This document shows positions 6,493 through 50,775 of a stretch of DNA of 64,000 nucleotides, piece by piece. The notes under the pieces were generated by a model. That model was not told the DNA's origin. It saw only the letters and a program-made list of their open reading frames with translations, and did no database searches. Every line of letters begins with the position of its first letter. Position 1 is the first letter of the stretch. The translations under genes and the position numbers were made by a program. The stretch spans positions 118,129 through 182,128 of the forward strand of contig JAHDDK010000001.1 of the NCBI GenBank assembly GCA_020629375.1, written 5' to 3'. The DNA is from Acidimicrobiales bacterium (GTDB lineage Bacteria > Actinomycetota > Acidimicrobiia > Acidimicrobiales > SHLQ01).

Positions 6493-6534
6493 ACCTGACG
6501 GCGCCGCACTCGGCCGCCTCCTGAACGCACGCTC

Positions 6535-6975
6535 GTGATCTGGCTCCTTGTCGTCGTCGGCGCTCTGGTCGTCATCGGCGTCGCCGTCGTTGCGGTGTCT
6601 CGTGTTGCCGTCGAACTCGAGTCGACGATGGCACCGGCATTGCTCGAGGTCGACGACGCCGTCGAAGCGGTGGCCGAGGCGATCCCCTACGAAGTGTCGG
6701 CCGTGCTCTCGCACCACGACGTCGACCAGATCATTCGATGGGTGCTCGACTGGTTCGACCAGCTCGGCATGGCAAGCGACTTCGGCGAAGAGTTGGGAGG
6801 CGACTGGGTCGAGGACGAACGGGCCGTCGCCGACGAGATCGGCGCCGCCGACTATGCCGTCGCTCGCAGCCTCGATGCCCGTCCCGACCTCGAAAGCGTG
6901 CACGTGACCGTGGTCGTCGACGAGTTCCTCACGTACCTGCGCGACATCGGCGCCGTTGGCGACGAGGTTCGCTGA
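6535..6975 (+). CDS. hypothetical membrane-anchored acidic protein
   Basis: GTG start, N-terminal TM helix IWLLVVVGALVVIGVAVVAV, then an acidic soluble part. High GC3. Followed by a good terminator. Confidence 0.6.
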   Translation: MIWLLVVVGALVVIGVAVVAVSRVAVELESTMAPALLEVDDAVEAVAEAIPYEVSAVLSHHDVDQIIRWVLDWFDQLGMASDFGEELGGDWVEDERAVADEIGAADYAVARSLDARPDLESVHVTVVVDEFLTYLRDIGAVGDEVR

Positions 6976-7600: not shown

Positions 7601-8414
7601 CGCGTCGACGTCTCCCGAGCCGCAACGTCGCACGCTTCACGGCGGTGCCGGCGAGCTCGAAGCGTGGCTGGTCGAGCCGACCTCCGACACGGATCGCCGC
7701 CATCCAGGCCTGATCCTGGCCCCCGGTTTCCCGACCGACCCGGGCGGTGGAGCGAACTCGTTCAAGACATTCCCCGACTTGGCCGTCCGGATCGCCGACG
7801 AGGCCCGGATGACCGTGCTCGCCCTGGCCTACCGGGGGGTCGCGTCGTCGAGCGGCCACTTCTCCCTGCAAGGCTGGAAACGCGATCTGCACACGGCGCT
7901 TGACCAACTCCGACGCGTCGACGACGTGTCGACGATCTGGATGATGGGATTCGGCACCGGGGGAGCCCTGTCGATCGCCGCCGCAGCCGACGATCGCCGC
8001 GTCGCTGGCGTCGTGTCCGTTGCGGCCCCCGCAGACTTCACCGACTGGGGTGGGCGGCCCCGAGAGCTGCTCTCTCATGCACGGCGATGTGGGGCGATCA
8101 GCGACCCGGACCAGCCTGCGGACTTCGGTCGGTGGTCGAAAGAACTCCTCCAGGTCGCGGCCGTTGGATCGGCAGGCGAGCTCGGCGACACGCGGCTGCT
8201 CGTGCTGCACGGCTCCGACGACGACGCCGTCCCGGCTCTCGACGCCCGTGCCATCGCCGACGCTCACGGAAGCGCCGATCTCCGCATCATCGACCGGGCC
8301 CGGCACCACCTTCGGCACGACCCCCGAGCGATGGCCATCGCCATCGGCTGGCTACATCGGCGCGGGTTGCCCGCTCAACAGATCGGCGATTCGCCGGTCA
8401 TGACCACTTCGTAG
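7575..8414 (+). CDS. alpha/beta-hydrolase-fold protein (nucleophile motif degenerate)
   Basis: Only the C-terminal ~280 aa of track ORF 6738..8414 look protein-like (LHGGAGELEAWLVEP..., LLVLHGSDDDAVP, RARHHL). The first in-frame start candidate is the GTG at 7575, so the start is uncertain. The nucleophile elbow reads GFGTGG rather than GxSxG. Confidence 0.65.
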   Translation: MDTASQSPDASTSPEPQRRTLHGGAGELEAWLVEPTSDTDRRHPGLILAPGFPTDPGGGANSFKTFPDLAVRIADEARMTVLALAYRGVASSSGHFSLQGWKRDLHTALDQLRRVDDVSTIWMMGFGTGGALSIAAAADDRRVAGVVSVAAPADFTDWGGRPRELLSHARRCGAISDPDQPADFGRWSKELLQVAAVGSAGELGDTRLLVLHGSDDDAVPALDARAIADAHGSADLRIIDRARHHLRHDPRAMAIAIGWLHRRGLPAQQIGDSPVMTTS

Positions 8415-9162
8415 GCCGCTTGCGGGCGATCCCCGTGACGAACTTCGGATACTGCAACAGATACCGGCGCCACAGCCGTTTCGGTTCGGTGACCAGTCGG
8501 AACAACCATTCGAAGCCGCTCCGCTGAATCCAATACGGCGCCTGCGTTGTCCGGCCCGTGTGGAAATCGAACGCGGCGCCGACACCGATCAGGACCGGAG
8601 CATCGAGTCGATCCCGGAACGCATCCATCCAGCGTTCCTGCTTGGGTGTCGACAAACCGACCCAAACGATGTCGGCCCCGGAGTCGTTGATCATTGACAC
8701 GATGTCTTCTTCTTCGGCTGGCTCGAGCGCCCGGAACGGCGGGCTGAACGCCCCGACCGACTGAAACCCGGGATACCGGCGGGCGAGCTCCTCGCCAAGC
8801 TCGGCAGCGACACCATCGGCCGCTCCATAGAAGAACGACTTCCACCCGTCGGTTGCCGCACGCTCGGCGATTGCCAGGGTCAGGTCGGGCCCGTACACCC
8901 GATCGGCATCGTCGTAGCCCGCATGTCGAGCAGACCACACCAGCGGCATACCGTCGGTCGTGCACATCCCGGCGCGGTTGTGGATCTCCCGAAGCGAAGC
9001 GTCATCGAGCGACTCGACAATGCCGTGCACGCTCGTCACACAGACGTACGTGCGGGCATCGTCACGAATCCATCCCGCGATCCGTTCGACGGCTCGAGGA
9101 ATGTCGCCGGCGGTGATACGCACACCGAGCACATCGACGAACTGTTGCGGTTGGGTGGTCAT
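8398..9162 (-). CDS. WecG/TagA/CpsF-family (GT26) glycosyltransferase
   Basis: Start at the ATG at 9162 with GAGGA 5 nt upstream. Blocks DGMPLVW, GPDL, FFYGA, VGLSTPKQERW, IGVGAAFDF and EWLFRL. Confidence 0.9.
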   Translation of the reverse strand: MTTQPQQFVDVLGVRITAGDIPRAVERIAGWIRDDARTYVCVTSVHGIVESLDDASLREIHNRAGMCTTDGMPLVWSARHAGYDDADRVYGPDLTLAIAERAATDGWKSFFYGAADGVAAELGEELARRYPGFQSVGAFSPPFRALEPAEEEDIVSMINDSGADIVWVGLSTPKQERWMDAFRDRLDAPVLIGVGAAFDFHTGRTTQAPYWIQRSGFEWLFRLVTEPKRLWRRYLLQYPKFVTGIARKRPTKWS

Positions 9163-9176
9163 GGCGTCCTCGCTGA

Positions 9177-10394
9177 TCAGGCGGTCACGTGCGCGTACCA
9201 CGACTCCATCGCTGTGCGCGCCGACTCGACACCGTACCGAGTGCGAGCGTGGACGACTGCCTCGTCGAGGATTGGCTCGAGCTTGCCGTCGAGGACATCG
9301 AGGATGGCCTCGGCGAGGGCCTTTGCAGGCGTCGCCGCCGTCGTTGGATCGGCGAGAGCGGACATGCCTGCGGTCACGTCGCGGACGGCACCGGTATCGA
9401 ACGCGGCGATCGGCACTCTCGACGCCTGGGCCATCGGCAGAAGCGTCGACCCCGAATCCCGGCGACTCGGAAAGACGAAGACGTCGGCGTTGACTAATTC
9501 TGTGCGTTCTTCGGTGCGGCTGAGCGTGGGGGCGAAGGTGACGGAGTCGCCGAGCTCGAGGGTGGCGACCTGCTCACGGAGGTCGTCGTGGCGTGGTCCC
9601 TTTCCGATCACGGTCAGCTGCACGTCGGGATGTCTGGCGATCACGTGCGGCATCGCAGCGATCGCAAGGTCGTGGCCCTTCCAATGCAGCTGGCGACCCG
9701 TGATCACCAAGTGGGGACCGCCCGGGCGGTCTTGGCGCGGGAGTTCGTCGAGATCCGACAACAGCTCCGGGGTGAGCGAGAAGGCCGTCCGGAAGACCTC
9801 AACCGATTCGGCTCCCGCCTCGCGCATCCGTTTCGCCGTCTGTTCGGTAGCGGCGACCATCAGCGTCGTCGGGCTCGACGCCATGCGCTTCCAGGCACGG
9901 CTCGACATCCCTCGGTCCTGCATCATCGACCGCAAGCGCTCTTTGAACTTCGCCCGCTTCGACGACCCAGCCGTCAGCGCGACCGGTTCGATCTCGCCAC
10001 CCGACACCGGGCCAAAGACGTGAGGTACCCCCGCGTCGGCGAACGGCACCGGCATCCAGAACGCCGAGAAGGTGACGTAGTGGGTGAGGTCGACTCGGCC
10101 CGATTCGATCAGCGGATTCGCCTTGCGTCGGGCCACACGCAACCAGATCAGGTTGTGGATGGCATCGCCGAGGCTTGTGCCGGTCTCGATGGGGCCAAGC
10201 TTCTCGGGCACATCGATCCAGTGCCACTCGACGTTGTCGATCGACGGTGCGGCCTCGATCGCCGACCGGTTGCTCGCCTTGGTGAACGCAATGACGTGAT
10301 GCTGCTGCGCGGCGTTACACACGGCCTGCCAGCCGATGCCGGGGTCAGAACCGGCGTCGGGCAGGCAGTCATAAGCCAGCATGAGTACGTTCAC
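9177..10394 (-). CDS. glycosyltransferase (GT4/GT-B fold)
   Basis: Start at the GTG at 10394 (VNVLMLAYDCLPDAGSDPGIGW). The C-terminal half carries the FVFPSRRDSGSTLLPMAQASRVPIAAFDTG block, an EX7E-like region. Confidence 0.8.
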   Translation of the reverse strand: MNVLMLAYDCLPDAGSDPGIGWQAVCNAAQQHHVIAFTKASNRSAIEAAPSIDNVEWHWIDVPEKLGPIETGTSLGDAIHNLIWLRVARRKANPLIESGRVDLTHYVTFSAFWMPVPFADAGVPHVFGPVSGGEIEPVALTAGSSKRAKFKERLRSMMQDRGMSSRAWKRMASSPTTLMVAATEQTAKRMREAGAESVEVFRTAFSLTPELLSDLDELPRQDRPGGPHLVITGRQLHWKGHDLAIAAMPHVIARHPDVQLTVIGKGPRHDDLREQVATLELGDSVTFAPTLSRTEERTELVNADVFVFPSRRDSGSTLLPMAQASRVPIAAFDTGAVRDVTAGMSALADPTTAATPAKALAEAILDVLDGKLEPILDEAVVHARTRYGVESARTAMESWYAHVTA

Positions 10395-28502: not shown

Positions 28503-29818
28503 TCACTGGGCGTTGATCGCGTCCGCAAGCCAGGCGTTGATGTCGGCCTGATTGCTGGCGATCCACTGGTCCGACAGTCGGCGGAGCGACGCAGCGGTTC
28601 TTCCTGAAGCCTCCCATTCGAAATTCAGCGCCGAAATGTCGAACACGGACATCTCGATTCGTTCGAGTAGGGCTCGCGCTGAGGGGTTCTCGCTGAGCCA
28701 CGCTTTGTTGGCGGTGATTTCGATGTCGGAGGCGAGCCAACCCAGCTGGCAGCCGTCCGCGCCACGCAGGCAAAACTCTGGTCCGAGGCCGCCAAAGCCC
28801 TCACCCTGATCGAACCATTCTCCGGACTCGATGCCGAGCGGGTTCGAGTTGTCGAGGACCGAGGCATCCCTTACCGAGAGGAACATCGTGTCCTGCCCTG
28901 CATGCCTCCACCGGGCATCAGTGACCCCTCGAGGCGCTCGAGGGTGTCGCCGACTTGCGAGCCATCTGGAAATTCGCCCTCCCACCACGAAAGGTGTCCC
29001 GGATACCACGAGTTCGCCCACAGATCGATCTCTCCAAGCGCCATGGCCTGGTAGCCGAGGTCAGGGGGAAACTCGTTCGCGCTTGGGTCCGACACCGTGT
29101 ATCCGAGATCTTCGAGGAGGTCGTGGACGATCTGGGCTTGGAGGTACCCGGAGGACCAATTGGCTCGTCCCATCGTCACGTTTCCGAGGGCTGGCCCGTC
29201 GATCACAAGCGCTGACCCACATCGCTCATCGAGGTCGATGTTGATGTCGTGGCAGGTGGCGCTGTTGGGTCCAGGGAAGAAGCGGTCGGTGTCGGGTCCG
29301 CCGGTGAGTTGGTCGGGTCCGGGTCCGCCGTTGAGGGTGTCGGCGCCTTGGCCGCCGTCGAGTCGGTCGAGGCCGTCGTTGCCGTGGAGTTGGTCGTTGC
29401 CGCCTGCGCCGTTGAGTCGGTCTTTGCCTTGTCCGCCGTCGATGGTGTCGGCTCCGGTCATGCCGAGGAGTCGGTCGGCGCCGTTGTTGCCGTGGATTTC
29501 GTCTTTGCCGCCGCCTCCGCGGATTTTGTCGTTGCCGAACCCGCCGGAGATCTGGTCGTTGCCCGGTCCGGCCAAGATCAGATCGTCTCCGCCCCGTCCG
29601 CAGATGATGTCGTTGCCTTCGTGGCCGTAGATGATGTCGCGTCCGGGGGTGCCGATGATGATGTCGTCGCCGGTGGTGCCGGTCATTGAGGTGGATGCGG
29701 GGATGGTCGGGTCGTCGCAGATCGCGAGGGACGCTGTCTGCGCCGCGGCGGGTGTGGCTGCGGTGGCGGTGAGCGCGGCGACAAGCGCGAGGATGGGTAG
29801 CGAGGCGAGCTTTTTCAC
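28503..29818 (-). pseudogene. frameshifted gene: signal peptide + RTX Ca-binding repeats + ProX/OpuAC-type glycine-betaine-binding domain
   Basis: Track ORFs 28871..29863 and 28503..29021 are two frames of one gene. Frame A ends ...LEGSLMPGGGMQG-RTRCSSR*. Frame B continues ...DTMFLSVRDASVLDNS...GWLASDIEITANKAWLSENPSARALL...QADINAWLADAINAQ, colinear with the E. coli ProX C-terminus. A 1-nt shift near 28889-28897 links the two. Start at the GTG at 29818 (AGGAG upstream). Confidence 0.8.
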
Positions 29819-29899
29819 GGGGGCGCTCCTGGGTTGCGGGAGCGGCCCTGAGGGTATGTGCAAACAACTGCGCTGTCGATGAGCTCCCAGCCTCAGGAC

Positions 29900-34072: not shown

Positions 34073-35188
34073 CTAGAGGCGAATCGTTGTCGTCAACTCC
34101 ATGAGCATCTCCAGCAGCGCGTCACCGCGAGACGCGGAGATGGCCCGATGCGCGTCGGCCGACTCCGCTGCCCCTCGTTCGGCGCCCCGGAGCCACGCCG
34201 GGTCCGTCCAGTGCTGGGCAAACTCTGCTGCCCATTCGGTCGGTTCGAGATCACCGATGATGGCGCCACCCTCGGCGACGGCGACAGCGATGCCTGGCTG
34301 GTCGGCAGCAATCACCGGGACGTGTGCCGCGTGCGCGTCGGCGACCAACCGGGGCCACTGTTCGTCGGCGTCGCCGATGATGAGCGCGCCGACGTCGTCG
34401 AAGTCGATTCCTCGCGGACCCCGGGGACGTGCGGCGATGTTTGGCTGCGACCGAAGGTCAGCGCGCAGCGTGGTTCGCATCTCGGCAGGGTTGCCTCGTG
34501 GCGTGATGATCGCGACCGGCGAGGCGGGCTGCGACATCGCGATGGCCCGAAGCACGTCTGCGCTCGCAGGCTTCGACGGCGCGGCGGCCAGGATTGTCGC
34601 TCCGCCGACATGGCTAGACGTCTCTCGCGCAACCGGCGGAATCGCGACGACGCGATCGGCCCGCGGTGCAGCGAGTTCGGCGAGAGCCGGCGTGTCGGCA
34701 AACACCAGGTCGTGGCCAAGCGCATCGAGGTGTCCGAGTCCCGAGTGATCCTCGAGAACCATGGCCACCGGGACATGGAGATCGATGCACGATGAGCGAA
34801 TCGCTCGCCAGGTCTCGGGTGCGATGGCGCAGCCGACCACGAGGTTCGGCGCGAACTCGAGGGCAATGTCGTCGAAGGCGTTCTCGGGGGCCACGGTCTC
34901 GAGCACCTCGACGTTGGCGTCGCGTGCCCGATGCGCACGACGCCCAGGAATCGAGCGAAGCCACGACGTCGATCCAGACAACATTGGTGCACCGTCGAAT
35001 CGTGCCGAGACACCCCGCAGCTGCCCGTGCAGAAAGCGGGTTACCGCGTGCCCGGCGCCGTTGTCTCGCAGAACGAGCGAATGGTGCTCACGCTGTTCGA
35101 GCAGGTCGATCAGCTCCGACACGCTTCGGCCAATCGAGTTCGAGGACGACACGAACAGCACGCGCAGGTGGGAGGCAGAAGCGGACAC
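34073..35188 (-). CDS. hypothetical protein, possibly a highly divergent GT-B-like enzyme
   Basis: High GC3 and operon position. The N-terminal LRVLFVSSSNSIG and late HVPVIAADQPG only loosely resemble GT-B proteins. Confidence 0.55.
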   Translation of the reverse strand: MSASASHLRVLFVSSSNSIGRSVSELIDLLEQREHHSLVLRDNGAGHAVTRFLHGQLRGVSARFDGAPMLSGSTSWLRSIPGRRAHRARDANVEVLETVAPENAFDDIALEFAPNLVVGCAIAPETWRAIRSSCIDLHVPVAMVLEDHSGLGHLDALGHDLVFADTPALAELAAPRADRVVAIPPVARETSSHVGGATILAAAPSKPASADVLRAIAMSQPASPVAIITPRGNPAEMRTTLRADLRSQPNIAARPRGPRGIDFDDVGALIIGDADEQWPRLVADAHAAHVPVIAADQPGIAVAVAEGGAIIGDLEPTEWAAEFAQHWTDPAWLRGAERGAAESADAHRAISASRGDALLEMLMELTTTIRL

Positions 35189-39410: not shown

Positions 39411-41342
39411 ATGGCTGGAGTTCCTTCCCCTGTCGCCGAGACCGGCAGCGCGTCCCCTGAGCGTCCCCGGGCAACGGCGTCCGACCCGCTTGGCGCAGTC
39501 CGTCGGATCGTCGCCCGATGGCGGCTGATCCTTTTGTGCGCGCTCGTCGGCATGTTTGGCGGATGGCTGATGGCCGAGATGGCCGCCGACACCGATGCGA
39601 TCCCCATCGAGATCGATCACTACGAGGCCGCGCATGTCCTGGTCCTCGACAGCAACATCCCCGAGACGCAGGCGGTTCTCGGCGTTCGGAACCTCAACGT
39701 GCTCGCCAAACGCATCACGATTGGCGCTGTGCCGCGGGCGGTCGCCGAGGCCACCGGCCTTCCTGCCAGCGATGTGGCGGGCCAGATTCGTGTGCTCATC
39801 CGCAGCGACAGCGAATCTGTTGACCTCGTCGCGATCGGTGAAACCCCAGCCGAAGCCGAGATTCTGGCCGATGCCTACGCGGAGGCGATCATCGCCGATC
39901 TCGAAGCGGAGGCGGCCGAGTATGCCGCCGAAGCGATCGCGAGCGCCGAAGCCCGACTGACCGAAGCCGAGGCCAACCTCGCCGACGTGCGCCGCGAGAT
40001 CATCGATGTCGAACGACGTGGCGACGAGCGCGCGGTTGCCTTCCTCGAACAAGACGAGCAGCAGTACCTGAGCGCACGCATCTACGCGAACGCTGCGCTC
40101 CTCGATGCCCGTGCCGACGGCGTGCCGATCGTGCCGCTCGACACGCTCGAATTCGCCGCCGGAACAGCATCGGTGATCAGCGAGTCCCGCTTCGACGGTC
40201 TCGTCGCCAAGGCTGCTGTCGGGCAGAACATCACGCTCCTCTTTGGAGACGAACAGGAAACCGAGACCGGAGGCGGCGCACTCGCAGCGGTCAGCTCCCG
40301 ACTTCCGAGTGGAGCCGGTCCCCGGCTGTTGTTCGGCGCGCTCGCCGGGCTCGTCCTCGGTATCGCCGCGGCCGCAGCTCTCGACCGTGTCGACACGAAA
40401 GTTCGCTCCAAACGTCAGGTCGAGAGCGTTCTCGACCTCCCGGTCATCGCCGAGGTCCCCACGCTTCCTCAGCGTGCACGCCGGACCGCGGAGATCCACA
40501 GCCGAGAACACCCCCGATCCCGCTTCGCCGAGCAGTACCGGACCCTTGCTTCGACCGTTCTGTATGCCCGCCGTCGTCGCCCGGACAGGACCTCCCAAGT
40601 CGTCCTCGTAACCTCTCCCGGACCGGCCGAGGGTAAGACGACCACGGTCGCCAACCTCGGCGCCATGCTGGCCGAGTCCGGCCGCACCGTCCTGTTGATG
40701 AACTGCGATTTCCGTCGCCCGAGGCTGCACCTGCTCACCGGAGCTCGCTATCAGCCAATGGACCTCCACGAGACCGACATTCCCGATGTCGAGCTGATCT
40801 CGAACGTGATCGAGGACGACGCCGCCTCTCCGACCGAAGTCATCGCAGCCCAGCGAACCGTGATTCAGCAGGCCGCCGCGCTGTACGACATCGTCTTGCT
40901 CGACACCGCACCTGTGCTTGCGACCAACGACGCCATGGACCTGCTCGATCTCGTCGACGACGTCGTGCTGGTGTGCCGCGCCGGACGCACGCGTGTGCTC
41001 GCTGCCGACCGGGCAGTCGAGACGATCGAGCGCAGAGAGGCACATGTCCTCGGGGTGACCATCACCGACCTCGACCTCACGAGGACTGTCGAGTACTACG
41101 GGTACGGGTCCTACTACGACGAGCGTCCTGCGCGTCGGGTCAACTGGATCCAGCGCTGGCGGGCTCGCCGTGCCCGACCCGACATCGACCTTCCGGGAGC
41201 ACGCCACGTCGACGTGCGTGAACCCGTTGCGTCGGGCGAGCGAATCGACCTCGCCGAAGTCGACTTTGGCGAGGATGACACCCGCGGTCAAGGCGTCGGC
41301 GTTGGCACCGACGGTGAGCCGCGCGTCGACGACGTGGCCTGA
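39411..41342 (+). CDS. polysaccharide co-polymerase (Wzz-like) fused to BY-type tyrosine autokinase
   Basis: Start at the ATG at 39411. Two TM helices flank a coiled-coil periplasmic-type domain. Walker A SPGPAEGKTTTVANLG, A' LLMNCDFRRP, B IVLLDTAPV, and a C-terminal Tyr cluster EYYGYGSYYD. Confidence 0.9.
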   Translation: MAGVPSPVAETGSASPERPRATASDPLGAVRRIVARWRLILLCALVGMFGGWLMAEMAADTDAIPIEIDHYEAAHVLVLDSNIPETQAVLGVRNLNVLAKRITIGAVPRAVAEATGLPASDVAGQIRVLIRSDSESVDLVAIGETPAEAEILADAYAEAIIADLEAEAAEYAAEAIASAEARLTEAEANLADVRREIIDVERRGDERAVAFLEQDEQQYLSARIYANAALLDARADGVPIVPLDTLEFAAGTASVISESRFDGLVAKAAVGQNITLLFGDEQETETGGGALAAVSSRLPSGAGPRLLFGALAGLVLGIAAAAALDRVDTKVRSKRQVESVLDLPVIAEVPTLPQRARRTAEIHSREHPRSRFAEQYRTLASTVLYARRRRPDRTSQVVLVTSPGPAEGKTTTVANLGAMLAESGRTVLLMNCDFRRPRLHLLTGARYQPMDLHETDIPDVELISNVIEDDAASPTEVIAAQRTVIQQAAALYDIVLLDTAPVLATNDAMDLLDLVDDVVLVCRAGRTRVLAADRAVETIERREAHVLGVTITDLDLTRTVEYYGYGSYYDERPARRVNWIQRWRARRARPDIDLPGARHVDVREPVASGERIDLAEVDFGEDDTRGQGVGVGTDGEPRVDDVA

Positions 41343-42748
41343 TGGCCGAGCCCAGCCGAGTCATTGCGCGGCCGAGCGAGCGCCGCCGACCCGGGCCCGT
41401 CCGGGCGGGAGCGATCGATCTCCGCGACGCCTCACACGCCAGTAGCCCGACCACAAGTCACTCGACGACGAACACCCGGTCGATCTTCAGCGGGATCGGT
41501 GCACTGTCGATCCTGGTCGCGGCAGCCGCCTACGGCTTTCTCGGGATCACCGGTGCCGAACCGACCACCGCCGGCATCATCCTTGTACCGGCGATGGCTG
41601 CAGCCACACACATCGCGATGCGCGCCGCGGTCGAGCGTTCGATCGGCACCGAGGCGATGAGCATCCTCTTCGCCGGCTTGGGACTTCGACTCCTCGCCGC
41701 CGTGCCCCGGCTCATGGGCGGGGTAGACGCGCCGGTCTACTTTCGAGAGGGCGACCGTCTGACGGACTCGTTTCGCAGCCTCAACTTCGTCGTGGACACG
41801 GGCCGAGCCATTCCGGGCACGGGCTCGGTCCGCTACCTGGCTGGATTGCTCAACGTACTGACCGGTTCGACCTACGTCGCCACGTACCTCCTGTTCGTAC
41901 TGTTGGCCTTCGTCGGCCAAGTGTTCTTCGTCGCCGGGTTCCGACCCGCCCTCGATGACCGGCAGTTCCGCATTCTGACGATTCTCGTGATGGCGAGCCC
42001 GACACTCGCTTTCTGGCCGTCGTCGATCGGCAAGGAAGCCGTCGTGCTGTTCGGCACGGGCCTCGCCATCTTCGGCGCGAGTCGCCTCGCGACACGTCGA
42101 GCCGCCGGACTCGGCGTAATGATCGCCGGCGTCGCGGCCGTCGGAATGGTCCGCCCGCACGTGGCGCTCGTGTTGCTCGCCGCCGTACTGGTCGGCTTGT
42201 TCTCCCGTCGCAGCGATGAGCGAAGCCGAGTGGTCGCGCATGTGGCGGTCGTGGTGGTCCTCGTCGGCGGTTCGATGTGGGCGTCGACGGCCTCTGCACA
42301 ACTGTTCGGCCTCGAAGGGCTCGACGGCTTCTCCGATGTGAGCGCGGCCCTGGACTTTGCGCAGCAGCGAACCTCTCAGGACCGCGCTGCATTCGTGGCA
42401 CCCCGAGTTGATACGCCAGCGGACTATCCGTGGGCGGTCGTCACCGTTCTTTTCCGGCCGTTCCCGTGGGAAGCGCCCAACGCCCTTGCTCTCGTCAGTG
42501 CAGTCGAATCGACGCTTCTCGCCGGTCTCGTCGTGGCGGCGATCCCCGGAACGCTCCGACGTCGCCAGTTGATCGTCCGCTCGGGGCAACTGCTCTCCGC
42601 GATCGCCTTCATCGCCGTGTTCGCCTACGTCTTCTCTGCGATCGGCAACTTCGGCATCTTGTCGCGCCAACGTGCTCAGGTCGTGCCCTTCGTTCTCGTC
42701 CTCGTGTCGATCGGACTGGGTATTCGTCGCGGAGGCCGAGCATCGTGA
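41342..42748 (+). CDS. polytopic membrane protein, candidate Wzy-type polymerase
   Basis: 468 aa with about 10-12 hydrophobic segments and one large loop. The start overlaps the kinase stop by 1 nt. No diagnostic motif; the function is inferred from context. Confidence 0.6.
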   Translation: MAEPSRVIARPSERRRPGPVRAGAIDLRDASHASSPTTSHSTTNTRSIFSGIGALSILVAAAAYGFLGITGAEPTTAGIILVPAMAAATHIAMRAAVERSIGTEAMSILFAGLGLRLLAAVPRLMGGVDAPVYFREGDRLTDSFRSLNFVVDTGRAIPGTGSVRYLAGLLNVLTGSTYVATYLLFVLLAFVGQVFFVAGFRPALDDRQFRILTILVMASPTLAFWPSSIGKEAVVLFGTGLAIFGASRLATRRAAGLGVMIAGVAAVGMVRPHVALVLLAAVLVGLFSRRSDERSRVVAHVAVVVVLVGGSMWASTASAQLFGLEGLDGFSDVSAALDFAQQRTSQDRAAFVAPRVDTPADYPWAVVTVLFRPFPWEAPNALALVSAVESTLLAGLVVAAIPGTLRRRQLIVRSGQLLSAIAFIAVFAYVFSAIGNFGILSRQRAQVVPFVLVLVSIGLGIRRGGRAS

Positions 42749-43929
42749 GTGTCCTGGTCGCTCGACCTTCGATCGTCTCCCTCGACGTCGGCGATCACTG
42801 GCTCCTGATCGATGTCAGCGACCGCGCCCTCACCGAACTCAATGCGTCGGCGCACGCCGTGTTCTCGGCATTCCGATCCGGGGCCGGCATCGACGAGGTC
42901 GTCGCCGATTTCACGACGTCGAACCTCTGGGCGCACCCGCCGACCGCTGCACAGGTTCGAGACGCCATCGCCATGCTCCGGGCGCAGCGTCTGCTGGTGT
43001 CCGCCTCCGGCCCGTACCGTGCGCTCGACGCGTTGTTCTGGCTCGAAGCGCCGAACGACCCCGTCGGCGATGCCATCCGAGATGCGTTGCATCCGTTGGC
43101 CGTCGTCGACACCACAGCCACGACGGCGATGTCCGGTCGTCCTGTACTCGTCTCGGTACATCGCGCCCCAACCAACGACACCGACATGATCGATCTCACC
43201 GACCGGTACGAGATCGCCGTCGACGAGCAGCGGATTCTGCAGACGTCGACGGCCGGGCGAACCGTCCGCCAAACGCTCGCCCATGTCAACACGATGGCCA
43301 TCGAGTCGGTGCCCGACGATGCGGTCTTTCACGCTGCGGCCGTATGTGTCGAGGGACGTCGGGTGCTGATCGCGGGCGAGTCGAACGCCGGCAAGTCGAC
43401 GCTGGCCGCCCAGATGCTGCAGCGTGGCCACGGCTATCTCACCGACGAAGCCGCCGCCGTGGATCCCCGAGGCGACGTCCGCCCATTCCCCAAGTCGCTG
43501 TGCCTCGACCCCGGCAGCCACGACCTTCTCGCCGATCTCGAGCCCGAGGTCGGTCCGTCGAGGACGTGGGACATCAACCCGACGATGATCGACGGCGCCT
43601 GGGTCGACGACGGAGGACCGGTCGATGCGGTGATCCTCGTCGAACGTCGGGCCGGGAGCGAACCATCGATCACCCCACTCGACCGATCCAGCGCCGCACG
43701 AGCACTCTTCGCGCAGGCGTTCGCGTTTGACCCGTCACATACGGCGGCCCCGAAGATCATCGCCGCCCTAGCCCGAGACGTTCCCATCGTGCGGTACGTG
43801 CATCCCGGTGGCCACGACCACGTCGACCATCTGGTCGATTGGATTGTCGGTCAGTCGCGGATGGCGCGGCGATCGCCCGGAACGCGTGGAGCGGCCTCGA
43901 TCGGAACGCCGCGCTCGGCTCGTCGCTGA
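42745..43929 (+). CDS. fusion of a PqqD-like (RRE) domain and an HprK-related P-loop kinase domain
   Basis: GTG at 42745 in a GTGA overlap. The N-terminal LTELNASAHAVFSAFRSGAGIDEVVADF...AQVRDAIAMLRAQRLL is PqqD-like. The central VLIAGESNAGKSTLAAQMLQRGHGYLTDEAAAV is like the HPr kinase/phosphorylase C-terminal domain. Confidence 0.7.
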   Translation: MSVLVARPSIVSLDVGDHWLLIDVSDRALTELNASAHAVFSAFRSGAGIDEVVADFTTSNLWAHPPTAAQVRDAIAMLRAQRLLVSASGPYRALDALFWLEAPNDPVGDAIRDALHPLAVVDTTATTAMSGRPVLVSVHRAPTNDTDMIDLTDRYEIAVDEQRILQTSTAGRTVRQTLAHVNTMAIESVPDDAVFHAAAVCVEGRRVLIAGESNAGKSTLAAQMLQRGHGYLTDEAAAVDPRGDVRPFPKSLCLDPGSHDLLADLEPEVGPSRTWDINPTMIDGAWVDDGGPVDAVILVERRAGSEPSITPLDRSSAARALFAQAFAFDPSHTAAPKIIAALARDVPIVRYVHPGGHDHVDHLVDWIVGQSRMARRSPGTRGAASIGTPRSARR

Positions 43930-45497
43930 CGCTTGGTCTGATACTGGTCCTCATCGGCTGCTCGGAGTAGCTCGGACCGCGTTGCCACTTCGTCGGTCAC
44001 GAACGCCAAGCCGCACGAAATCGACCGTGGTCGCCCCGAACCCGCCGACCGCTCGAACAACGCCTCGATGTCGCCCGCCATGGCGTGCGCGGTGAGAAGC
44101 GCCCCGCCATCGATCACCACACAGAACTCGTCTCCGCCCATGCGACACACGGTCGTCCGCTCCGGGTCGCGGACAGCTCCACGCAGCGCCGCCGCGGCAT
44201 CGATCAACAGTCGATCGCCGGCCTCGTGGCCATCGACATCATTGACGGTCTTCAGCCCGTCGACATCGCACATGATCACGGCGACGTCGAGACGGTCGGT
44301 GGGATGCCGGGAGAAAACGGCATCGAGTACGCGGTAGAGGCCGTGTCGGTTGGTCAGCCCGGTGAGCTGGTCGCGCAAGGCCATACGTTGCATCTCCGCC
44401 CAGTGCGTGGTGTGGTCGACGGCCTCGGCTGCCATTCGGGCCACGTGTCGTGCGGACGCTAGGTCTGCGGTATCAAACGGGTCGCCGTCGTGGCGTTGGG
44501 CGACCAGCGCCGCCCACGGACGGCCGCCGGCGACGATGGGGACCACAATTTCACCCGTCAGACCGGTCGGAAGCTGCGGGTCGTCGCGGTCGTGGCGAAG
44601 CGAGACTCCGGCACGGAGTTCGGACAACAGGGCGAAGTCGTCGAGATGATCGAGTGCAGCGGCGTCGCCGTCGGACGCCAACCGTTGCCCGAGTCCCGCC
44701 TCGCCGATCTCGACCACCGTGGCACAGGTCGCCCCGGTCGAGCGCCGAAGGTCTGCCGCGAACAACGTCATCAGGTCGCCCGCGTCGGCCGCCGAAGCGA
44801 CGGCAGCAGCAACGACGTCGGACGTCGCCGCTTCGGTCGGAGTCGACTGGCGAAGAGCGGCGAGCAGTTCGACCACGAGTCCCGGGGCGTCGACCGGTAG
44901 ATCGATCGCGTCGAGCAGGACGGTCTCGGCGGCGGCGACGACCCGCGCATCGAATCGGGATCCGTCGTCTCGGCGGAGACGGGCGAGGCCGTCCACCCAG
45001 CTCGGCAACCACCCCGGCGCCGGATTCCCGACGAGCTCGTCGGCGACAGCGAGCACCCGTGCACCCAACGGAATCGACTCGCCCCGAAGGCCGTCGGGCA
45101 TGCCCCGGCCGTCCATCCGTTCGGTCATCGCCCGGACGAGTTGCGCCACGTCGCGTAGCCCGGCGTGCCGAGTTAGCAGCGACCCGGACAACACGGATCG
45201 GGCGATGTCGCGGGGTTGTTCGACATCGGCGGGCTGTGTAACGACGAGATCGATGTCCGCCAGTGCAGCTGCAGCGATGGTGGTTGCGTCGTCGAGATCA
45301 GCGGGTGCCCCGGCGAGTCGGAGTTGCTCACACACCCGTAACACCACCGCCGCACGGATCGCCGCCCGATGGGCAAGCGCCGGGTCGTACAGCTCGGCCA
45401 AACGAAGCAGTGCCGCCGTCGCGCCGAGCGTCGCGTCCGAGAACGTTCGGTGTGTCGACGACGTCGGAGCTTCGACGCTGGGCGTTGGATCGATCAT
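43851..45497 (-). CDS. GGDEF diguanylate cyclase with N-terminal degenerate HD-GYP-like and GAF-like regions
   Basis: C-terminal LTGLTNRHG...MCDVDGLKTVNDVDGHEAGD...RMGGDEFCVV. N-terminal ...ERMDGRGMPDGLRGESIPLGARVLAVADEL resembles HD-GYP, but the HD site reads ADI. Confidence 0.85.
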   Translation of the reverse strand: MIDPTPSVEAPTSSTHRTFSDATLGATAALLRLAELYDPALAHRAAIRAAVVLRVCEQLRLAGAPADLDDATTIAAAALADIDLVVTQPADVEQPRDIARSVLSGSLLTRHAGLRDVAQLVRAMTERMDGRGMPDGLRGESIPLGARVLAVADELVGNPAPGWLPSWVDGLARLRRDDGSRFDARVVAAAETVLLDAIDLPVDAPGLVVELLAALRQSTPTEAATSDVVAAAVASAADAGDLMTLFAADLRRSTGATCATVVEIGEAGLGQRLASDGDAAALDHLDDFALLSELRAGVSLRHDRDDPQLPTGLTGEIVVPIVAGGRPWAALVAQRHDGDPFDTADLASARHVARMAAEAVDHTTHWAEMQRMALRDQLTGLTNRHGLYRVLDAVFSRHPTDRLDVAVIMCDVDGLKTVNDVDGHEAGDRLLIDAAAALRGAVRDPERTTVCRMGGDEFCVVIDGGALLTAHAMAGDIEALFERSAGSGRPRSISCGLAFVTDEVATRSELLRAADEDQYQTKRQRRAERGVPIEAAPRVPGDRRAIRD

Positions 45498-45660: not shown

Positions 45661-45762
45661 ATGAGCACTCGAAAACTCATCCTCGCGTCGCTCGCGCTCG
45701 GGGTCGTGATCCTCGTCGCATTCGCGGTGCAACTCGTGCTCGCGCGCGGGACGGTTGGGTAG
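45661..45762 (+). CDS. candidate 33-aa single-TM peptide upstream of lpdA
   Basis: MSTRKLILASLALGVVILVAFAVQLVLARGTVG. Mostly G/C-ending codons, GAGGGG just upstream, and an imperfect hairpin after the stop. Speculative. Confidence 0.3.
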   Translation: MSTRKLILASLALGVVILVAFAVQLVLARGTVG

Positions 45763-47254: not shown

Positions 47255-49087
47255 ATGACCGACATCACGCTTCCTCTTCTCGGCGAGTCCGTGACCGAGG
47301 GGACCATCACGCGGTGGTTCAAACAGGTGGGCGACACGGTTGCCGAGGACGAGGCGTTGTTCGAGGTGTCGACGGACAAGGTGGATTCGGAGGTGCCGTC
47401 GCCGGTGGCGGGGGTGATCACCGAGATCGTGGTTCCGGAGGGAGAGACGGTCGAGGTTGGGACGGTTCTGGCTCGTATTGGTGATGGTGCTGCTGCTCCG
47501 GCCGCGGCTCCCGTGGAGGCGGCTCCGGCTCCCGAACCTGCCCCGGCACCTGAACCTGCCCCGGCTCCCGTTGCGGAGGCTCCGGCAGCCGCACCCGCAC
47601 CTGCGCCTGCCCCCGCTGCGCCAGCGAGCGGTGGTGCCTCCACCGACATCACGCTTCCTCTTCTCGGCGAGTCCGTGACCGAGGGGACCATCACGCGGTG
47701 GTTCAAACAGGTGGGCGACACGGTTGCCGAGGACGAGGCGTTGTTCGAGGTGTCGACGGACAAGGTGGATTCGGAGGTGCCGTCGCCGGTGGCGGGGGTG
47801 ATCACCGAGATCGTGGTTCCGGAGGGAGAGACGGTCGAGGTTGGGACGGTTCTGGCTCGTATTGGTGATGGTGCTGCTGCTCCGGCCGCGGCTCCCGTGG
47901 AGGCGGCTCCGGCTCCCGAACCTGCCCCGGCACCTGAACCTGCCCCGGCTCCCGTTGCGGAGGCTCTGGCACCCGCACCGGCGCCTGCTCCAGAGCCTGC
48001 GCCAGCCCCCGTTGCGCCAGCGCCCGCACCCGAGATCGACCTGTCGGGATATGTGCTCTCGCCGGTCGTGCGCCGACTCATCTCCGAGAACGACCTCGAC
48101 CCCGGCACCATCACCGGAACCGGTGTCGGCGGCCGCATCACCCGCAAAGACGTCGAAGCGGTCATCCAGGCGCGGGCTGCGGGCATGGCCACCGCCGATG
48201 CCACGCCCCCGGCCGCCGCACCTGCCCCTTCGCCGGCGACGCCAGCACCGGCGCCAGCTACTCCGGCGCCAGCTACTCCGGCACCCGCTGCCGAAGCACC
48301 GGCTGCGCCCGCACCGGCAGCTCCTGCCCCGGCTCCGGCCTCGGAGTCTGCTCCTGCGCCGTCGGCTCCCGGAACTGAGCGACGTCAGGCCCTCAACAAC
48401 ATCCGGCGTCGTACGGCCGAGCACATGGTGATGTCGAAGGCGACGTCTCCCCATGTGCTCACCGCTATGGAGGTCGACTTCGAAGCGGTCGAAGTTGTGC
48501 GACGTCGTCACAAGTCCGACTGGAAGTCCGAGGAAGGCTTCAGTCTCACCTACCTTCCGTTCGTCCTGCGTGCCGTTGCGGACGCCCTCCGCGACTTCCC
48601 GCTGATGAACGCCTCGCTCGAGGGCGATGACATCGTGGTCCACAACGACGTCAATGTTGCGATCGCCGTCGACCTCAACTTCGACGGCCTCCTCGCTCCG
48701 GTCGTGAAGAACGTTGAGGGCAAGCGGCTGCGACAACTCAGCCGGGACGTGGTCGACATCGCCACCCGTGCCCGCTCGAAGAAGGTCACCCCGGACGACC
48801 TGTCGGGCGGGACGTTCACGATCACGAACCCGGGTCAGTACGGGACGATGATGCAGTTCCCGATCATCAATCAGCCCCAGGTTGCGATCCTCTCCACCGA
48901 CGGTGTGCACCGCAAGCCCGTCGTCGTGACCGACGAGTACGGCAGCGAGAACATCGCCATCCACTCGGTCGGCGTGCTCGCGTTGGCGTGGGACCATCGC
49001 GCCTTCGACGGCGCCTACGCGGCGGCGTTCTTGGCTCGAATGCGCGAGATCATCGAAGGCACCGACTGGGAAGCCGAGATCAGCTGA
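47255..49087 (+). CDS. 2-oxoacid dehydrogenase E2 (dihydrolipoamide acyltransferase): two lipoyl domains, E3-binding domain, catalytic domain
   Basis: Start at the ATG at 47255 (GGAG upstream). Two copies of EVSTDKVDSEVPSP (lipoyl-Lys), PSBD SPVVRRLISENDLDPGTITGTGVGGRITRKDV, and catalytic DHRAFDG. Confidence 0.95.
   Translation: MTDITLPLLGESVTEGTITRWFKQVGDTVAEDEALFEVSTDKVDSEVPSPVAGVITEIVVPEGETVEVGTVLARIGDGAAAPAAAPVEAAPAPEPAPAPEPAPAPVAEAPAAAPAPAPAPAAPASGGASTDITLPLLGESVTEGTITRWFKQVGDTVAEDEALFEVSTDKVDSEVPSPVAGVITEIVVPEGETVEVGTVLARIGDGAAAPAAAPVEAAPAPEPAPAPEPAPAPVAEALAPAPAPAPEPAPAPVAPAPAPEIDLSGYVLSPVVRRLISENDLDPGTITGTGVGGRITRKDVEAVIQARAAGMATADATPPAAAPAPSPATPAPAPATPAPATPAPAAEAPAAPAPAAPAPAPASESAPAPSAPGTERRQALNNIRRRTAEHMVMSKATSPHVLTAMEVDFEAVEVVRRRHKSDWKSEEGFSLTYLPFVLRAVADALRDFPLMNASLEGDDIVVHNDVNVAIAVDLNFDGLLAPVVKNVEGKRLRQLSRDVVDIATRARSKKVTPDDLSGGTFTITNPGQYGTMMQFPIINQPQVAILSTDGVHRKPVVVTDEYGSENIAIHSVGVLALAWDHRAFDGAYAAAFLARMREIIEGTDWEAEIS
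47258..47966 (+). repeat. perfect tandem duplication (325 nt, period 384 nt) covering lipoyl domain plus Ala/Pro linker
   Basis: 47258-47582 and 47642-47966 read identically base for base in my comparison. They diverge at 47583 versus 47967. Confidence 0.9.
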
Positions 49088-49089
49088 TC

Positions 49090-50775
49090 GTGGACCCGCT
49101 GCGCGTCCGGTGGCTAGGGCGGGTGGCTTATCGGGACGCGCTCGAACTCCAGCACCGACTGTGGTCGACTGACGGCCGATGGCACGGCGACCACTTGCTC
49201 CTACTCGAGCACGATCCGGTCTTCACGCTTGGTGCTCGCGCCGATCTCGTGAACCTACTGGTCGACCCGGCCGAACACGGCGCCGATGTGATCGAAGCCG
49301 ATCGCGGCGGTGACATCACCTGGCACGGGCCGGGCCAGCTGACCGGCTACCCGGTGATGTCTGTACCGGGTAAGCGCGGTGGGGGCATGGCCGACACCGT
49401 CGCCTGGGTCCGGACGATCGAACAACTCGTCATCGACACCTGTCGAAGTCTGGGACTCGACGATGTCGGACGACTCGACGACTATCCGGGCGTGTGGGTC
49501 GAGCCCAACTCGGACGCGCCCCGCAAAATCGCGGCCATCGGTGTGCGGTTGAGCCGAGGACGATCGATGCACGGTTTCGCGCTCAATGTCGACCCCGATC
49601 TCGTCTGGTTCGATCGGATGATCCCGTGCGGCATCGACGACAAGGCCGTCACGTCGCTCGCCGCCGAGGGGATCGACGTGACCATGCGCGAGGTCGTCGA
49701 CGCCCTGGTCGAGCTCGCGGCGGCGGTGTGGGCCAGCGATCGATCGGTCGACCGCCAAGATGTGGTCTGGAAGACAACACCCGACGACCTCACTGCGTTC
49801 AGTCGTGGGCTCGGCCCGGGCGAGACGTCTGGAACCACTGATTCGCCTCATCTCGACGGCACATCGGTTCGCATTGCTGGTCGACTCGACGAAGCTGGGG
49901 TCACCACCGGCCTCCAGATCTCGTCCCGAAAGCCCGACTGGATGCGCGTCAAAGCCGACATGGGCCCCGAGTATCGGCGGCTCAAATCGGTGATGCGGTC
50001 GCTGGATCTCGTCACGGTGTGCGAAGAGGCTGGTTGTCCGAACATCTTCGACTGCTGGAACGACGGCACGGCGACGTTCATGGTGCTCGGCGAACGCTGC
50101 ACCCGGAAATGCGGGTTCTGCCTGGTCGACACCCGCCATCCGTTGGCCGCCGACCCCGACGAGCCAGCAAAGGTCGCCGAAGCTGTCGACAAAATGAACC
50201 TCGACTACTCCGTGATCACGATGGTCGCTCGAGATGACCTCGATGACGGTGGGGCGCGTCACGTCGCCGACACGGTTCGAGCGATTCGTGACCGGCGTCC
50301 GGCGTCTCGCGTCGAGGTCCTGATCTCCGACCTGAAGGGCGAGCCGGCCGACCTCGACACGGTCATCGCGGCAAGACCCGATGTGTTCAACCACAACATC
50401 GAGACCGTCCCACGTCTCCAACGAGTCGCTCGTCCATCGGCGTCGTACGCGCGGAGTCTGGCGGTGCTCGCGAGAGCTTCCGCCGCCGGACTGACCACGA
50501 AGTCGTCGATCATCGTGGGCATGGGCGAAGAGCCCGACGAGGTGATGTCGACAATGGCAGACCTCGCAGCCATCGGCGTCGACATCGTGACGATCGGCCA
50601 GTACCTCCGCCCGACGTCTCACCACCTGCCCGTCGCCCGATGGGTTGAGCCACACGAGTTCGACCAGTGGAAGTCCGCCGGCGAGTCGACACTGGGTCTG
50701 GCCCACGTCGAATCGTCACCGCTCACCCGCTCGAGCTACCACGCGAAACAAGGAGAAGCCGCCGCCCGTGCCTGA
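49090..50775 (+). CDS. lipB-lipA: single ORF encoding octanoyltransferase LipB fused to lipoyl synthase LipA
   Basis: GTG at 49090, 3 nt after the E2 stop. LipB blocks HDPVFTLG, ADRGGDITWHGPGQ, RKIAAIGVR, HGFALNV and PCGI. A ~35-aa linker follows. LipA blocks RKPDWMRVK, CEEAGCPNIFDCW, CTRKCGFC, NHNIETV and RSSYHA. There is no stop codon between the two halves. Confidence 0.85.
   Translation: MDPLRVRWLGRVAYRDALELQHRLWSTDGRWHGDHLLLLEHDPVFTLGARADLVNLLVDPAEHGADVIEADRGGDITWHGPGQLTGYPVMSVPGKRGGGMADTVAWVRTIEQLVIDTCRSLGLDDVGRLDDYPGVWVEPNSDAPRKIAAIGVRLSRGRSMHGFALNVDPDLVWFDRMIPCGIDDKAVTSLAAEGIDVTMREVVDALVELAAAVWASDRSVDRQDVVWKTTPDDLTAFSRGLGPGETSGTTDSPHLDGTSVRIAGRLDEAGVTTGLQISSRKPDWMRVKADMGPEYRRLKSVMRSLDLVTVCEEAGCPNIFDCWNDGTATFMVLGERCTRKCGFCLVDTRHPLAADPDEPAKVAEAVDKMNLDYSVITMVARDDLDDGGARHVADTVRAIRDRRPASRVEVLISDLKGEPADLDTVIAARPDVFNHNIETVPRLQRVARPSASYARSLAVLARASAAGLTTKSSIIVGMGEEPDEVMSTMADLAAIGVDIVTIGQYLRPTSHHLPVARWVEPHEFDQWKSAGESTLGLAHVESSPLTRSSYHAKQGEAAARA

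Follow-up and report, generated by a model that had tools for sequence, protein, structure and literature searches.

A PqqD-type domain fused to an HprK-like kinase and coupled to a tyrosine kinase and a membrane-protein family in Acidimicrobiia: a candidate guided serine kinase of a glycan locus

We analysed a 64,000-nucleotide stretch of DNA from an Acidimicrobiales bacterium (GenBank assembly GCA_020629375.1, contig JAHDDK010000001.1, positions 118,129 to 182,128 of the forward strand), hereafter called the window. The subject of this report is a gene of this window whose product joins a PqqD-type domain, of the kind known as RiPP (ribosomally synthesised and post-translationally modified peptide) recognition element (RRE), to a kinase domain resembling that of the HPr kinase/phosphorylase HprK/P. 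This gene, called here the fusion gene, follows the genes for a bacterial tyrosine kinase (BY-kinase) and for a membrane protein that we call mem468, and it faces a convergent gene for a GGDEF protein. The four genes are as follows.

39411..41342 (+), BY-kinase / polysaccharide co-polymerase (PCP) of 643 amino acids with two transmembrane (TM) helices (TIGR01007, Wzc and motifs)
41342..42748 (+), mem468 (P0087), polytopic membrane protein of 468 amino acids (about 10 TM helices; more than 520 homologues)
42745..43929 (+), fusion gene (P0001), 394-residue protein made of a PqqD/RRE domain, a middle domain and an HprK-like kinase domain (translation; AlphaFold model)
43851..45497 (-), convergent HD(HD_5)-GAF-GGDEF protein (Pfam GGDEF, E = 2e-28; HD_5, E = 5e-12)

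The GTG start codon of the fusion gene (42745-42747) and the TGA stop codon of mem468 (42746-42748) form a GTGA overlap at 42745-42748, and the fusion gene is called identically on public contigs. The ATG of mem468 and the stop codon of the BY-kinase gene likewise share a TGATG overlap (41340-41344). Since the genes overlap in this way, the BY-kinase, mem468 and fusion genes constitute a translationally coupled trio in which the fusion gene is the last cistron, and there is no room inside the operon for a small open reading frame (ORF) encoding a precursor. The 4-bp overlap between mem468 and the fusion gene was also found in orthologues. At its other end the fusion gene overlaps the convergent GGDEF gene by 79 bp (43851-43929), a part that encodes the C-terminal 25 or so residues of the fusion protein, which are unconserved and modelled with low confidence; this overlap is missing in most orthologues and is 19 bp long in L009 (L numbers designate loci).

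The fusion protein was divided into the following parts.

42745..43008 (+), PqqD/RRE-type domain, residues 1-88, four beta-strands followed by three helices (family hidden Markov model (HMM), E = 1.6e-21; fold)
43009..43308 (+), middle domain, residues about 89-188, counterpart of the N-terminal region in HprK-related kinase A proteins (family 'mid' HMM, E = 1e-17)
43309..43854 (+), HprK-like P-loop kinase domain, residues 189-370 (PF07475, TIGR04352, Foldseek)
43330..43449 (+), catalytic motif H196 - G211ESNAG216-K217-S218-T219 - D234-E235 (alignment A1)

The AlphaFold model of the fusion protein, made with an alignment of 30 relatives, had a pLDDT of 90.2 and a pTM of 0.85. Foldseek comparisons showed that its N-terminus matches the lasso-peptide RRE of the TbiB1-leader complex 5v1v (E = 2e-4, target TM-score 0.76, root-mean-square deviation 2.9 over 82 columns), and the modelled part has the winged-helix fold, with strands in E10-32 and helices in H34-80. 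The Pfam PqqD profile (PF05402) matched 27 of the 30 aligned relatives, with a best E-value of 1e-12, the best NCBIfam value for the window protein itself being 0.12. The kinase part of the model has the fold of the HprK/P C-domains, as represented by 1kkl, 1jb1, 3tqf and 2qmh (E = 1e-6 to 6e-5, target TM-scores of 0.46 to 0.58); phosphoenolpyruvate carboxykinase (PEPCK) was matched at E-values of about 1e-6 to 1e-5, with a query TM-score of at most 0.45 and a larger coverage than HprK/P. Among sequence profiles, PF07475 (Hpr_kinase_C) matched residues 193-240 only (E = 9e-7) with 29.0 bits, below its gathering cut-off of 33.3, while TIGR04352 gave E = 1e-10 and 41.3 bits, below its equivalog cut-off of 200, in an alignment that begins at model position 93. 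The canonical HprK/P profile TIGR00679 covered about 50 residues with 31.6 bits, below its cut-off of 240, and HprK/P sequences of the PDB matched at E = 0.0014. TIGR04352 scored from 81 to 125 bits on orthologues and on the triad kinases described below, also under 200, and on these scores the fusion is to be placed as a sister group of the TIGR04352 HprK-related kinase A and not as a member of it. The first-pass annotation of this DNA had read the start at the GTGA overlap, a PqqD/RRE-type N-terminus, an HprK-like kinase centre, and a BY-kinase and a convergent GGDEF gene as neighbours, all of which were recovered here; we hold the assignment of the two domains to be highly probable.

In alignment A1, which holds 30 members, H196, the P-loop from G211 to S218 with its GKST, and D234-E235 were invariant; residues 211-235, from the P-loop to the acidic pair, read GESNAGKSTLAAQMLQRGHGYLTDE. 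The spacing H-x20-K-x16-D was preserved in 205 of the 228 family members and is identical to that of H148...K169...D186/D187 in BsfK (PMC10368454). In PsmK, mutation of the acid pair abolishes phosphorylation (PMC6993621). Because these residues are invariant, the BsfK spacing is kept and the acidic pair is essential in PsmK, the catalytic apparatus of the fusion looks intact.

An exhaustive profile search returned 92,768 related representatives, 5,864 of them at E-values of 1e-30 or below. Among the 142 top new representatives, 126 had the PqqD-middle-kinase architecture and nine had the kinase followed by PqqD. The fusion is not peculiar to this locus; it is the dominant architecture of a large family, some members of which are labelled "PqqD family peptide modification chaperone" by NCBI. 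The literature that we searched held nothing on the fusion family or on HPr-rel-A, TIGR04352 or PF14907, and neither RRE-Finder nor the 2025 structure-based RRE paper mentions HPr-type kinases or polysaccharide contexts.

Public contigs with fusion relatives (27-39% identity) came nearly all from metagenome-assembled genomes (MAGs) of Acidimicrobiia, including Candidatus Microthrix and Aldehydirespiratoraceae. The closest relative in GTDB representative genomes was 38% identical, and the neighbouring genes there were 76-87% identical. The gene order BY-kinase, mem468, fusion and convergent HD-GAF-GGDEF was kept in about 30 Acidimicrobiia loci, and we call the layout BY-kinase, mem468, PqqD::kinase Type A. 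Upstream, the shared order comprises Acetyltransf_9 (-), a polysaccharide deacetylase, a family 4 glycosyltransferase (GT4), a second GT4 (-), often DegT, the BY-kinase and a membrane protein of 430-475 amino acids; from the fusion gene on it continues with the convergent HD-GAF-GGDEF gene, an ORF of 29-33 codons, lpdA, sucB and lipB-lipA.

The membrane protein had been called Wzy-like, a label that our results do not uphold. We found for mem468 no Pfam family and, even with the family profile, no sequence match in the PDB, and none of its more than 520 homologues is annotated or carries a Pfam domain; Wzy_C reached E = 0.053 on one of 41 relatives only. Its model (pLDDT 84, pTM 0.83) matched WaaL (7tpg) with a Foldseek probability of only 0.33, and the best matches were weak ones to the GT-C enzymes AglB, STT3, PglB and ArnT (E = 0.05 to 0.7), with ALG9 and AftD among the further GT-C matches and an overall range of 0.05 to 5. 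The model thus describes a polytopic membrane protein whose fold is weakly GT-C-like.

The link between mem468 and the kinase was examined independently by searching metagenome contigs with the mem468 alignment alone, and profiles for the kinase, PqqD, NTP_transf_5 and the BY-kinase were mapped onto the 80 loci that were returned. For the 18 loci with flanks of at least 4.5 kb on both sides, an HprK-like kinase lay within 5 kb in 10, any part of the kinase/PqqD/NTP_transf_5 set in 11, and a BY-kinase in 12; with flanks of at least 3 kb, some part of the set was present in 17/25. The G+C content of the mem468 loci ranged from 0.50 to 0.77, and they are therefore not one lineage. Besides Type A, two other layouts were distinguished. 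Type B consists of BY-kinase, PqqD, NTP_transf_5, mem468 and a kinase with fused or separate PqqD, and Type C of BY-kinase, mem468, NTP_transf_5 (sometimes fused to the kinase), PqqD and PqqD. In L031, PqqD, NTP_transf_5 and mem468 are followed by PqqD::kinase, and a triad of NTP_transf_5, PqqD and kinase was found in the relatives L010, L031, L033, L034 and L035, kinase-only relatives occurring in such triads with or without surrounding glycan genes. One protein of L033 (16350-18269, +; 639 amino acids) is an NTP_transf_5::middle::kinase, with NTP_transf_5 in the place of PqqD, and its gene has a 4-bp overlap with a mem468-family gene.

A link that survives both the rearrangement of genes and the shuffling of domains points to a functional association rather than an inherited gene order, and we consider it probable that the fusion is functionally tied to the BY-kinase/membrane-protein module. 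The test of synteny with glycan genes that had been proposed gave a positive result for about 30 Acidimicrobiia loci, in which the order is kept, and for the mem468 family, which stays beside HprK-like kinases, but not for the distant fusions L008, L116 and L117. Since these three lie outside glycan loci, the glycan link belongs to this clade and to the mem468 family, not to all fusions.

A short motif of the mem468 tail is the candidate point of contact.

41357..41389 (+), RVIARPSERRR, residues 6-16 of mem468, candidate docking or phospho-acceptor site (homologue conservation)

The arginine-rich N-terminal tail of mem468 varies in both length and sequence, and the confidence of the model is low there. 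Within it, 99 of the 108 full-length homologues carried R-[VA]-I-P-R-P-S-[EQ]-R, where shuffling of the tails gave an expectation of 0.11. Nine positions have a high information content, which drops to near background on both sides, and the rest of the tail cannot be aligned; in the window mem468 the motif is followed by a Ser/Thr-rich stretch (residues 30-47). Across orthologues the motif is written with six different Arg codons and four Pro codons, a synonymous variation that points to selection on the peptide and rules out an explanation at the RNA level. We also rejected RPSERRR as a twin-arginine translocation (Tat) signal, as it lies 15-60 variable residues from the first TM helix and many variants have no twin Arg. 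All Type A loci in which the N-terminus was readable contained the motif. It was absent from the other layouts, where other Phi-x-x-P motifs or separate Tat-signal proteins with W-x-A-P-x-L occur instead. In divergent mem468 subfamilies the corresponding segment is I-R-L-P-P-L-R-R, L-D-V-P-P-L-R-R or R-R-A-Y-R-x-P-L-x-P, with only Pro in common. The result, for the motif and for these segments, is a Phi-x-x-P(-x-L) core, with the pattern of the YxxPxL conserved in the leaders of lasso peptides (PMC10368454). The Ser of the motif may be part of a docking element rather than the acceptor, because it is not kept outside Type A, and the acceptor could lie downstream. In lasso precursors, the acceptor is located about 20 residues from the leader motif.

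The BY-kinase of the window matched TIGR01007 at E = 1.4e-22, below the cut-off of that model, and Wzc at E = 5.6e-15. Its motifs were read directly (Walker A GKT, Walker A' VLLMNCDFRRP, Walker B LLDTAP, and a Tyr cluster EYYGYGSYYD at residues 561-570), and with its two TM helices, its three Walker motifs and its C-terminal Tyr cluster it has the make-up of a BY-kinase of the PCP-2 type. Many GT2 and GT4 glycosyltransferases, an epimerase, an acetyltransferase and a deacetylase make up the glycan genes of the locus. The Pfam scan of neighbours comprised 18 candidate genes, namely 10 ORFs at 22.2-31.8 kb and eight at 37.0-49.1 kb, several genes at about 31.7-36.2 kb not being directly scanned. 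These 18 genes included no lasso cyclase, protease or precursor, in agreement with the first-pass annotation, and no RiPP cyclase, protease or transporter of any class, no recognisable Wzy or Wzx and no HPr/PTS (phosphotransferase system) gene. Profile HMMs found no NTP_transf_5, second PqqD or second kinase anywhere in the 64 kb. The gene 'unk371' (34073-35188) was considered as the missing NTP_transf_5 and rejected, as it aligns with a gene of the GT4 type in L003 and the NTP_transf_5 HMM is silent in the window. A scan for promoters and terminators gave counts at the level of shuffled sequence.

Two further observations concern other genes of these regions. At 28871-29863 (-), amid the glycosyltransferase cluster, the window encodes an RTX protein that has calcium-binding repeats (HemolysinCabind, E = 1e-32) and a partial OpuAC-like region. 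Downstream of lpdA/sucB in Acidimicrobiia contigs, a lipoyl transferase (LplA-B_cat) and a lipoyl synthase (LIAS_N + Radical_SAM) form one polypeptide of 516-617 amino acids; such LplA-B_cat/LIAS calls were made at L003 16117-17970, L005 17035-18585 and L006 16108-17799, and probably also at 48988-50775 (+) of the window.

RRE (PqqD-like) domains are the usual markers of pathways for ribosomal peptide natural products, and to our knowledge lasso-peptide tailoring is the one role described for HprK-like kinases apart from carbon catabolite control. The lasso kinases with their RREs (BsfK and BsfB1 of Bradymonas; PadeK, ThcoK and PsmK of Firmicutes) share with the fusion the arrangement H...GxxxxGKS...D[DE] with identical spacing. 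The target of BsfK is an internal Ser, whose phosphorylation is much faster in the presence of the separate RRE BsfB1 (PMC10368454); more generally, in the lasso systems a PqqD-type RRE speeds Ser phosphorylation in a peptide with a YxxPxL leader, and related systems have a nucleotidyltransferase partner (PMC10368454, PMC6993621, PMC8498205). In pseudomycoidin, PsmN is required for the addition of a hexose to the phospho-Ser (PMC6993621). The window locus differs from these systems in that the RRE and the kinase are one polypeptide, the operon is one of a BY-kinase and glycan genes, and the proposed client is the mem468 tail, with no precursor, cyclase, protease or exporter among the scanned genes.

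The best-scoring family for the kinase part is HPr-rel-A, which comprises the TIGR04352 kinase, the TIGR04353 PqqD chaperone and a nucleotidyltransferase. The L003 orthologue matches TIGR04353, and the kinase-only relatives stand in NTP_transf_5 + PqqD + kinase triads; unlike in HPr-rel-A, however, the scores are 41-125 bits against 200, PqqD is fused, and the window contains no nucleotidyltransferase (PF14907). We therefore class the fusion as a divergent sister of the HPr-rel-A kinases in which the RRE is part of the same protein. With HprK/P it has in common the C-domain fold and the P-loop/His/Asp arrangement, whereas its N-terminus has the PqqD fold and not that of the HprK/P N-terminal domain. 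SynChlorMet ScmC/ScmD (PF27840, TIGR04249, TIGR04248) also pairs an HprK-like with a PqqD-like protein, and faint to weak precomputed PF27840 matches were present on the fusion and its relatives, but TIGR04249 scored 17 bits against a cut-off of 125 and the radical-SAM/SPASM partners are missing. Finally, the PCP-2-type BY-kinase with its Tyr cluster and the GT2/GT4, epimerase, acetyltransferase and deacetylase genes recall Wzx/Wzy assembly controlled by a BY-kinase/PCP, although no Wzy or Wzx was recognised and the sole polytopic protein belongs to an undescribed family. We know of no description of an additional Ser-kinase layer in systems of the BY-kinase/Wzx/Wzy type. The coupling to a BY-kinase and the mem468 family, the tail motif and the multi-layout module appear to be undescribed in the literature that we searched.

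On these comparisons, our tentative choice is that the fusion is an RRE-guided Ser kinase that acts on the mem468 tail and tunes the glycan-assembly machinery. It would be a cytoplasmic, self-contained version of the lasso pair of RRE and HprK-like kinase, in which the N-terminal RRE would dock on the leader-like motif of the mem468 tail and the C-terminal P-loop domain would move the phosphate of ATP to a nearby Ser or Thr. This phosphorylation would modulate the activity of mem468 or its association with the BY-kinase co-polymerase, so that Ser phosphorylation would tune glycan assembly alongside tyrosine phosphorylation and cyclic di-GMP (c-di-GMP). In relatives with NTP_transf_5, the phosphate would perhaps be decorated further, as in pseudomycoidin. 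The analysis shows which domains the protein has, that its catalytic motif is intact, that the operon coupling is conserved, and how the tail motif is conserved and distributed. The kinase activity, the binding of the motif by the RRE, the residue that accepts the phosphate and the effect on regulation are what we infer here, and the tail of mem468 is a predicted substrate that we put forward with similar caution.

Several results weigh against this proposal. No Pfam PqqD match at E-values of 0.01 or below was obtained for the window fusion itself, its best NCBIfam profile being lasso_PqqD_Strm at a non-significant 0.12. The tail is presumably cytoplasmic by the positive-inside rule alone, phylogeny confounds the co-occurrence of motif and fusion as Type A is one clade, and the divergent mem468 subfamilies have Pro, Leu or Ala where the motif has its Ser. 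In L013, L019 and L020 the fusion lies beside the GGDEF gene and lpdA with no mem468 or BY-kinase upstream. The fusion is also the fastest-evolving gene of its neighbourhood: its identity across relatives is 27-39%, whereas the BY-kinase reaches 39-76%, mem468 39-61% and lpdA about 70%. Lastly, distant members of the fusion family are found beside other candidate clients, which are a group of Tat-signal proteins and a 61-residue ORF.

These clients bear on the alternative that survives best, although we think it unlikely, in which the fusion targets another protein (the BY-kinase, the HD-GAF-GGDEF enzyme or a secreted protein encoded elsewhere) and the synteny reflects co-regulation only. The GGDEF gene accompanies the fusion as constantly as mem468 does, since it is found in all Type A loci and stays in L013, L019 and L020, where mem468 is missing; yet the fusion is translationally coupled to mem468, not to the GGDEF gene, and no conserved motif resembling a leader is on record for the GGDEF protein, no search aimed at one having been made. 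As for the BY-kinase, some orthologues (L003, L005, L006, L018, L025 and L029) carry [EV]-P-[ST]-x-R-R-R-R after a Tyr cluster EYYYxDDDPYL, giving PYL-x-P-S-x-RRRR, which resembles the P-S-E-R-R-R of mem468 and may be due to chance, but the window BY-kinase has no such PYLxPS motif. Secreted candidates are provided by other layouts, in which the kinase/PqqD/NTP_transf_5 set or a mem468-family gene adjoins Ser/Thr-rich proteins, mostly of 250-300 amino acids, with the Tat-like signal G-[LI]-[SDT]-R-R-x-[LF]-[LI]-x3-A-x-A-G-x3-W-[TVA]-A-P-[VIS]-[LI]. They often have a Cys near the C-terminus and matched no Pfam or NCBIfam family. The 11 instances, in nine loci, are the following Tat-signal proteins.

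L010, 7973-8545 (-)
L033, 8173-9018
L033, 9144-10010
L034, 13268-14131 (-)
L055, 2250-2777
L085, 10817-11641 (-)
L097, 10950-11765
L098, 7091-7861 (-)
L114, 7241-8011
L116, 4431-5243
L116, 6896-7708 (-)

These proteins may be clients of kinase/PqqD/NTP_transf_5 systems, but neither the 64-kb window nor any Type A locus contains one with the Tat/W-x-A-P-x-L signal. In L116, two paralogous PqqD-kinase fusions (5401-6756 and 8001-9278) lie 1.2 kb apart in a non-glycan context, each by its own 270-residue Tat-signal protein, an arrangement which suggests that kinase and client duplicated together.

Less probable again is a RiPP-type tailoring kinase for an unrecognised small peptide, encoded 1.7 kb downstream or elsewhere. 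Every characterised RRE-dependent HprK-like kinase acts on RiPP precursors, and the distant fusion of L117, on a low-GC contig, is preceded at 18 bp by a 61-residue ORF (916-1101, +) that contains RRELLKKLAYIPPTLVVLG and has a precursor-like look, with Y-I-P-P-T-L (a YxxPxL motif) and a Pro/Ser-rich C-terminus. In the window, the candidate is a 33-residue ORF at 45661-45762 (+), MSTRKLILASLALGVVILVAFAVQLVLARGTVG, one of a set of single-TM peptides of 29-33 residues (MSTRKLIL...) encoded 100-170 bp ahead of lpdA in all of the roughly 28 Type A loci examined, among them loci without glycan genes such as L019 and L020, which have no mem468. An identity as ribosomal protein bS22 was considered for this hydrophobic single-TM peptide and rejected. 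Against a RiPP pathway stand the scanned neighbours, which lack cyclases, proteases and transporters of every RiPP class, the operon, with no room for a precursor gene, and the small ORF itself, which lies past the convergent gene and has no Phi-x-x-P motif.

Slightly more doubtful still is the possibility that the P-loop domain transfers phosphate to something other than a protein (a sugar, a lipid-linked intermediate or the polymer), with PqqD as an adaptor to the membrane complex. The fold is common with the small-molecule kinase PEPCK, the locus is rich in glycan-modifying enzymes, and the nucleotidyltransferase of related systems is the one needed in pseudomycoidin for a hexose on phosphate. 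The closest sequence families, however, consist entirely of kinases that act on proteins or peptides, peptide binding is what RRE domains are known for, and the spacing of the catalytic motif is that of the peptide kinases. That the fusion is a decaying or non-catalytic relic, retained as a scaffold or by operon inertia, is very improbable, since 30 diverse members all keep H196, the GKST P-loop and D234, a full-length ORF is retained in about 30 loci and the AlphaFold model is confident, even though the identity of the fusion is low beside that of the BY-kinase and lpdA, the copy of L020 has no PqqD part and the window copy is the lowest-scoring on the family models.

The distribution of the Tat-signal proteins, the L117 ORF and the mem468 tails, itself confounded by phylogeny, fits a family whose PqqD domains read N-terminal protein segments of the Phi-x-x-P-x-L type; in Type A the mem468 tail would have assumed this role. 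The proposal that an RRE reads the tail of a membrane enzyme and that the kinase adds Ser control to BY-kinase polysaccharide assembly can be put more broadly, in a form that we regard as speculative and rather doubtful: mem468, PqqD, NTP_transf_5 and the HprK-like kinase would be a protein phospho-(glyco)sylation and export module derived in its mechanism from lasso tailoring, perhaps joined in other lineages by the Tat W-x-A-P-x-L proteins. If the fused kinase does act on the tail of a membrane enzyme of glycan assembly, RRE-guided modification would reach ordinary proteins, and a function would be available for a large family labelled "PqqD family peptide modification chaperone" or "hypothetical", together with a first handle on the HPr-rel-A gene set. 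Surface-polysaccharide synthesis would have a new regulatory input beside tyrosine phosphorylation and c-di-GMP, and there would be a handle on the widespread mem468 family of Acidimicrobiia membrane proteins, including those of Candidatus Microthrix-type MAGs.

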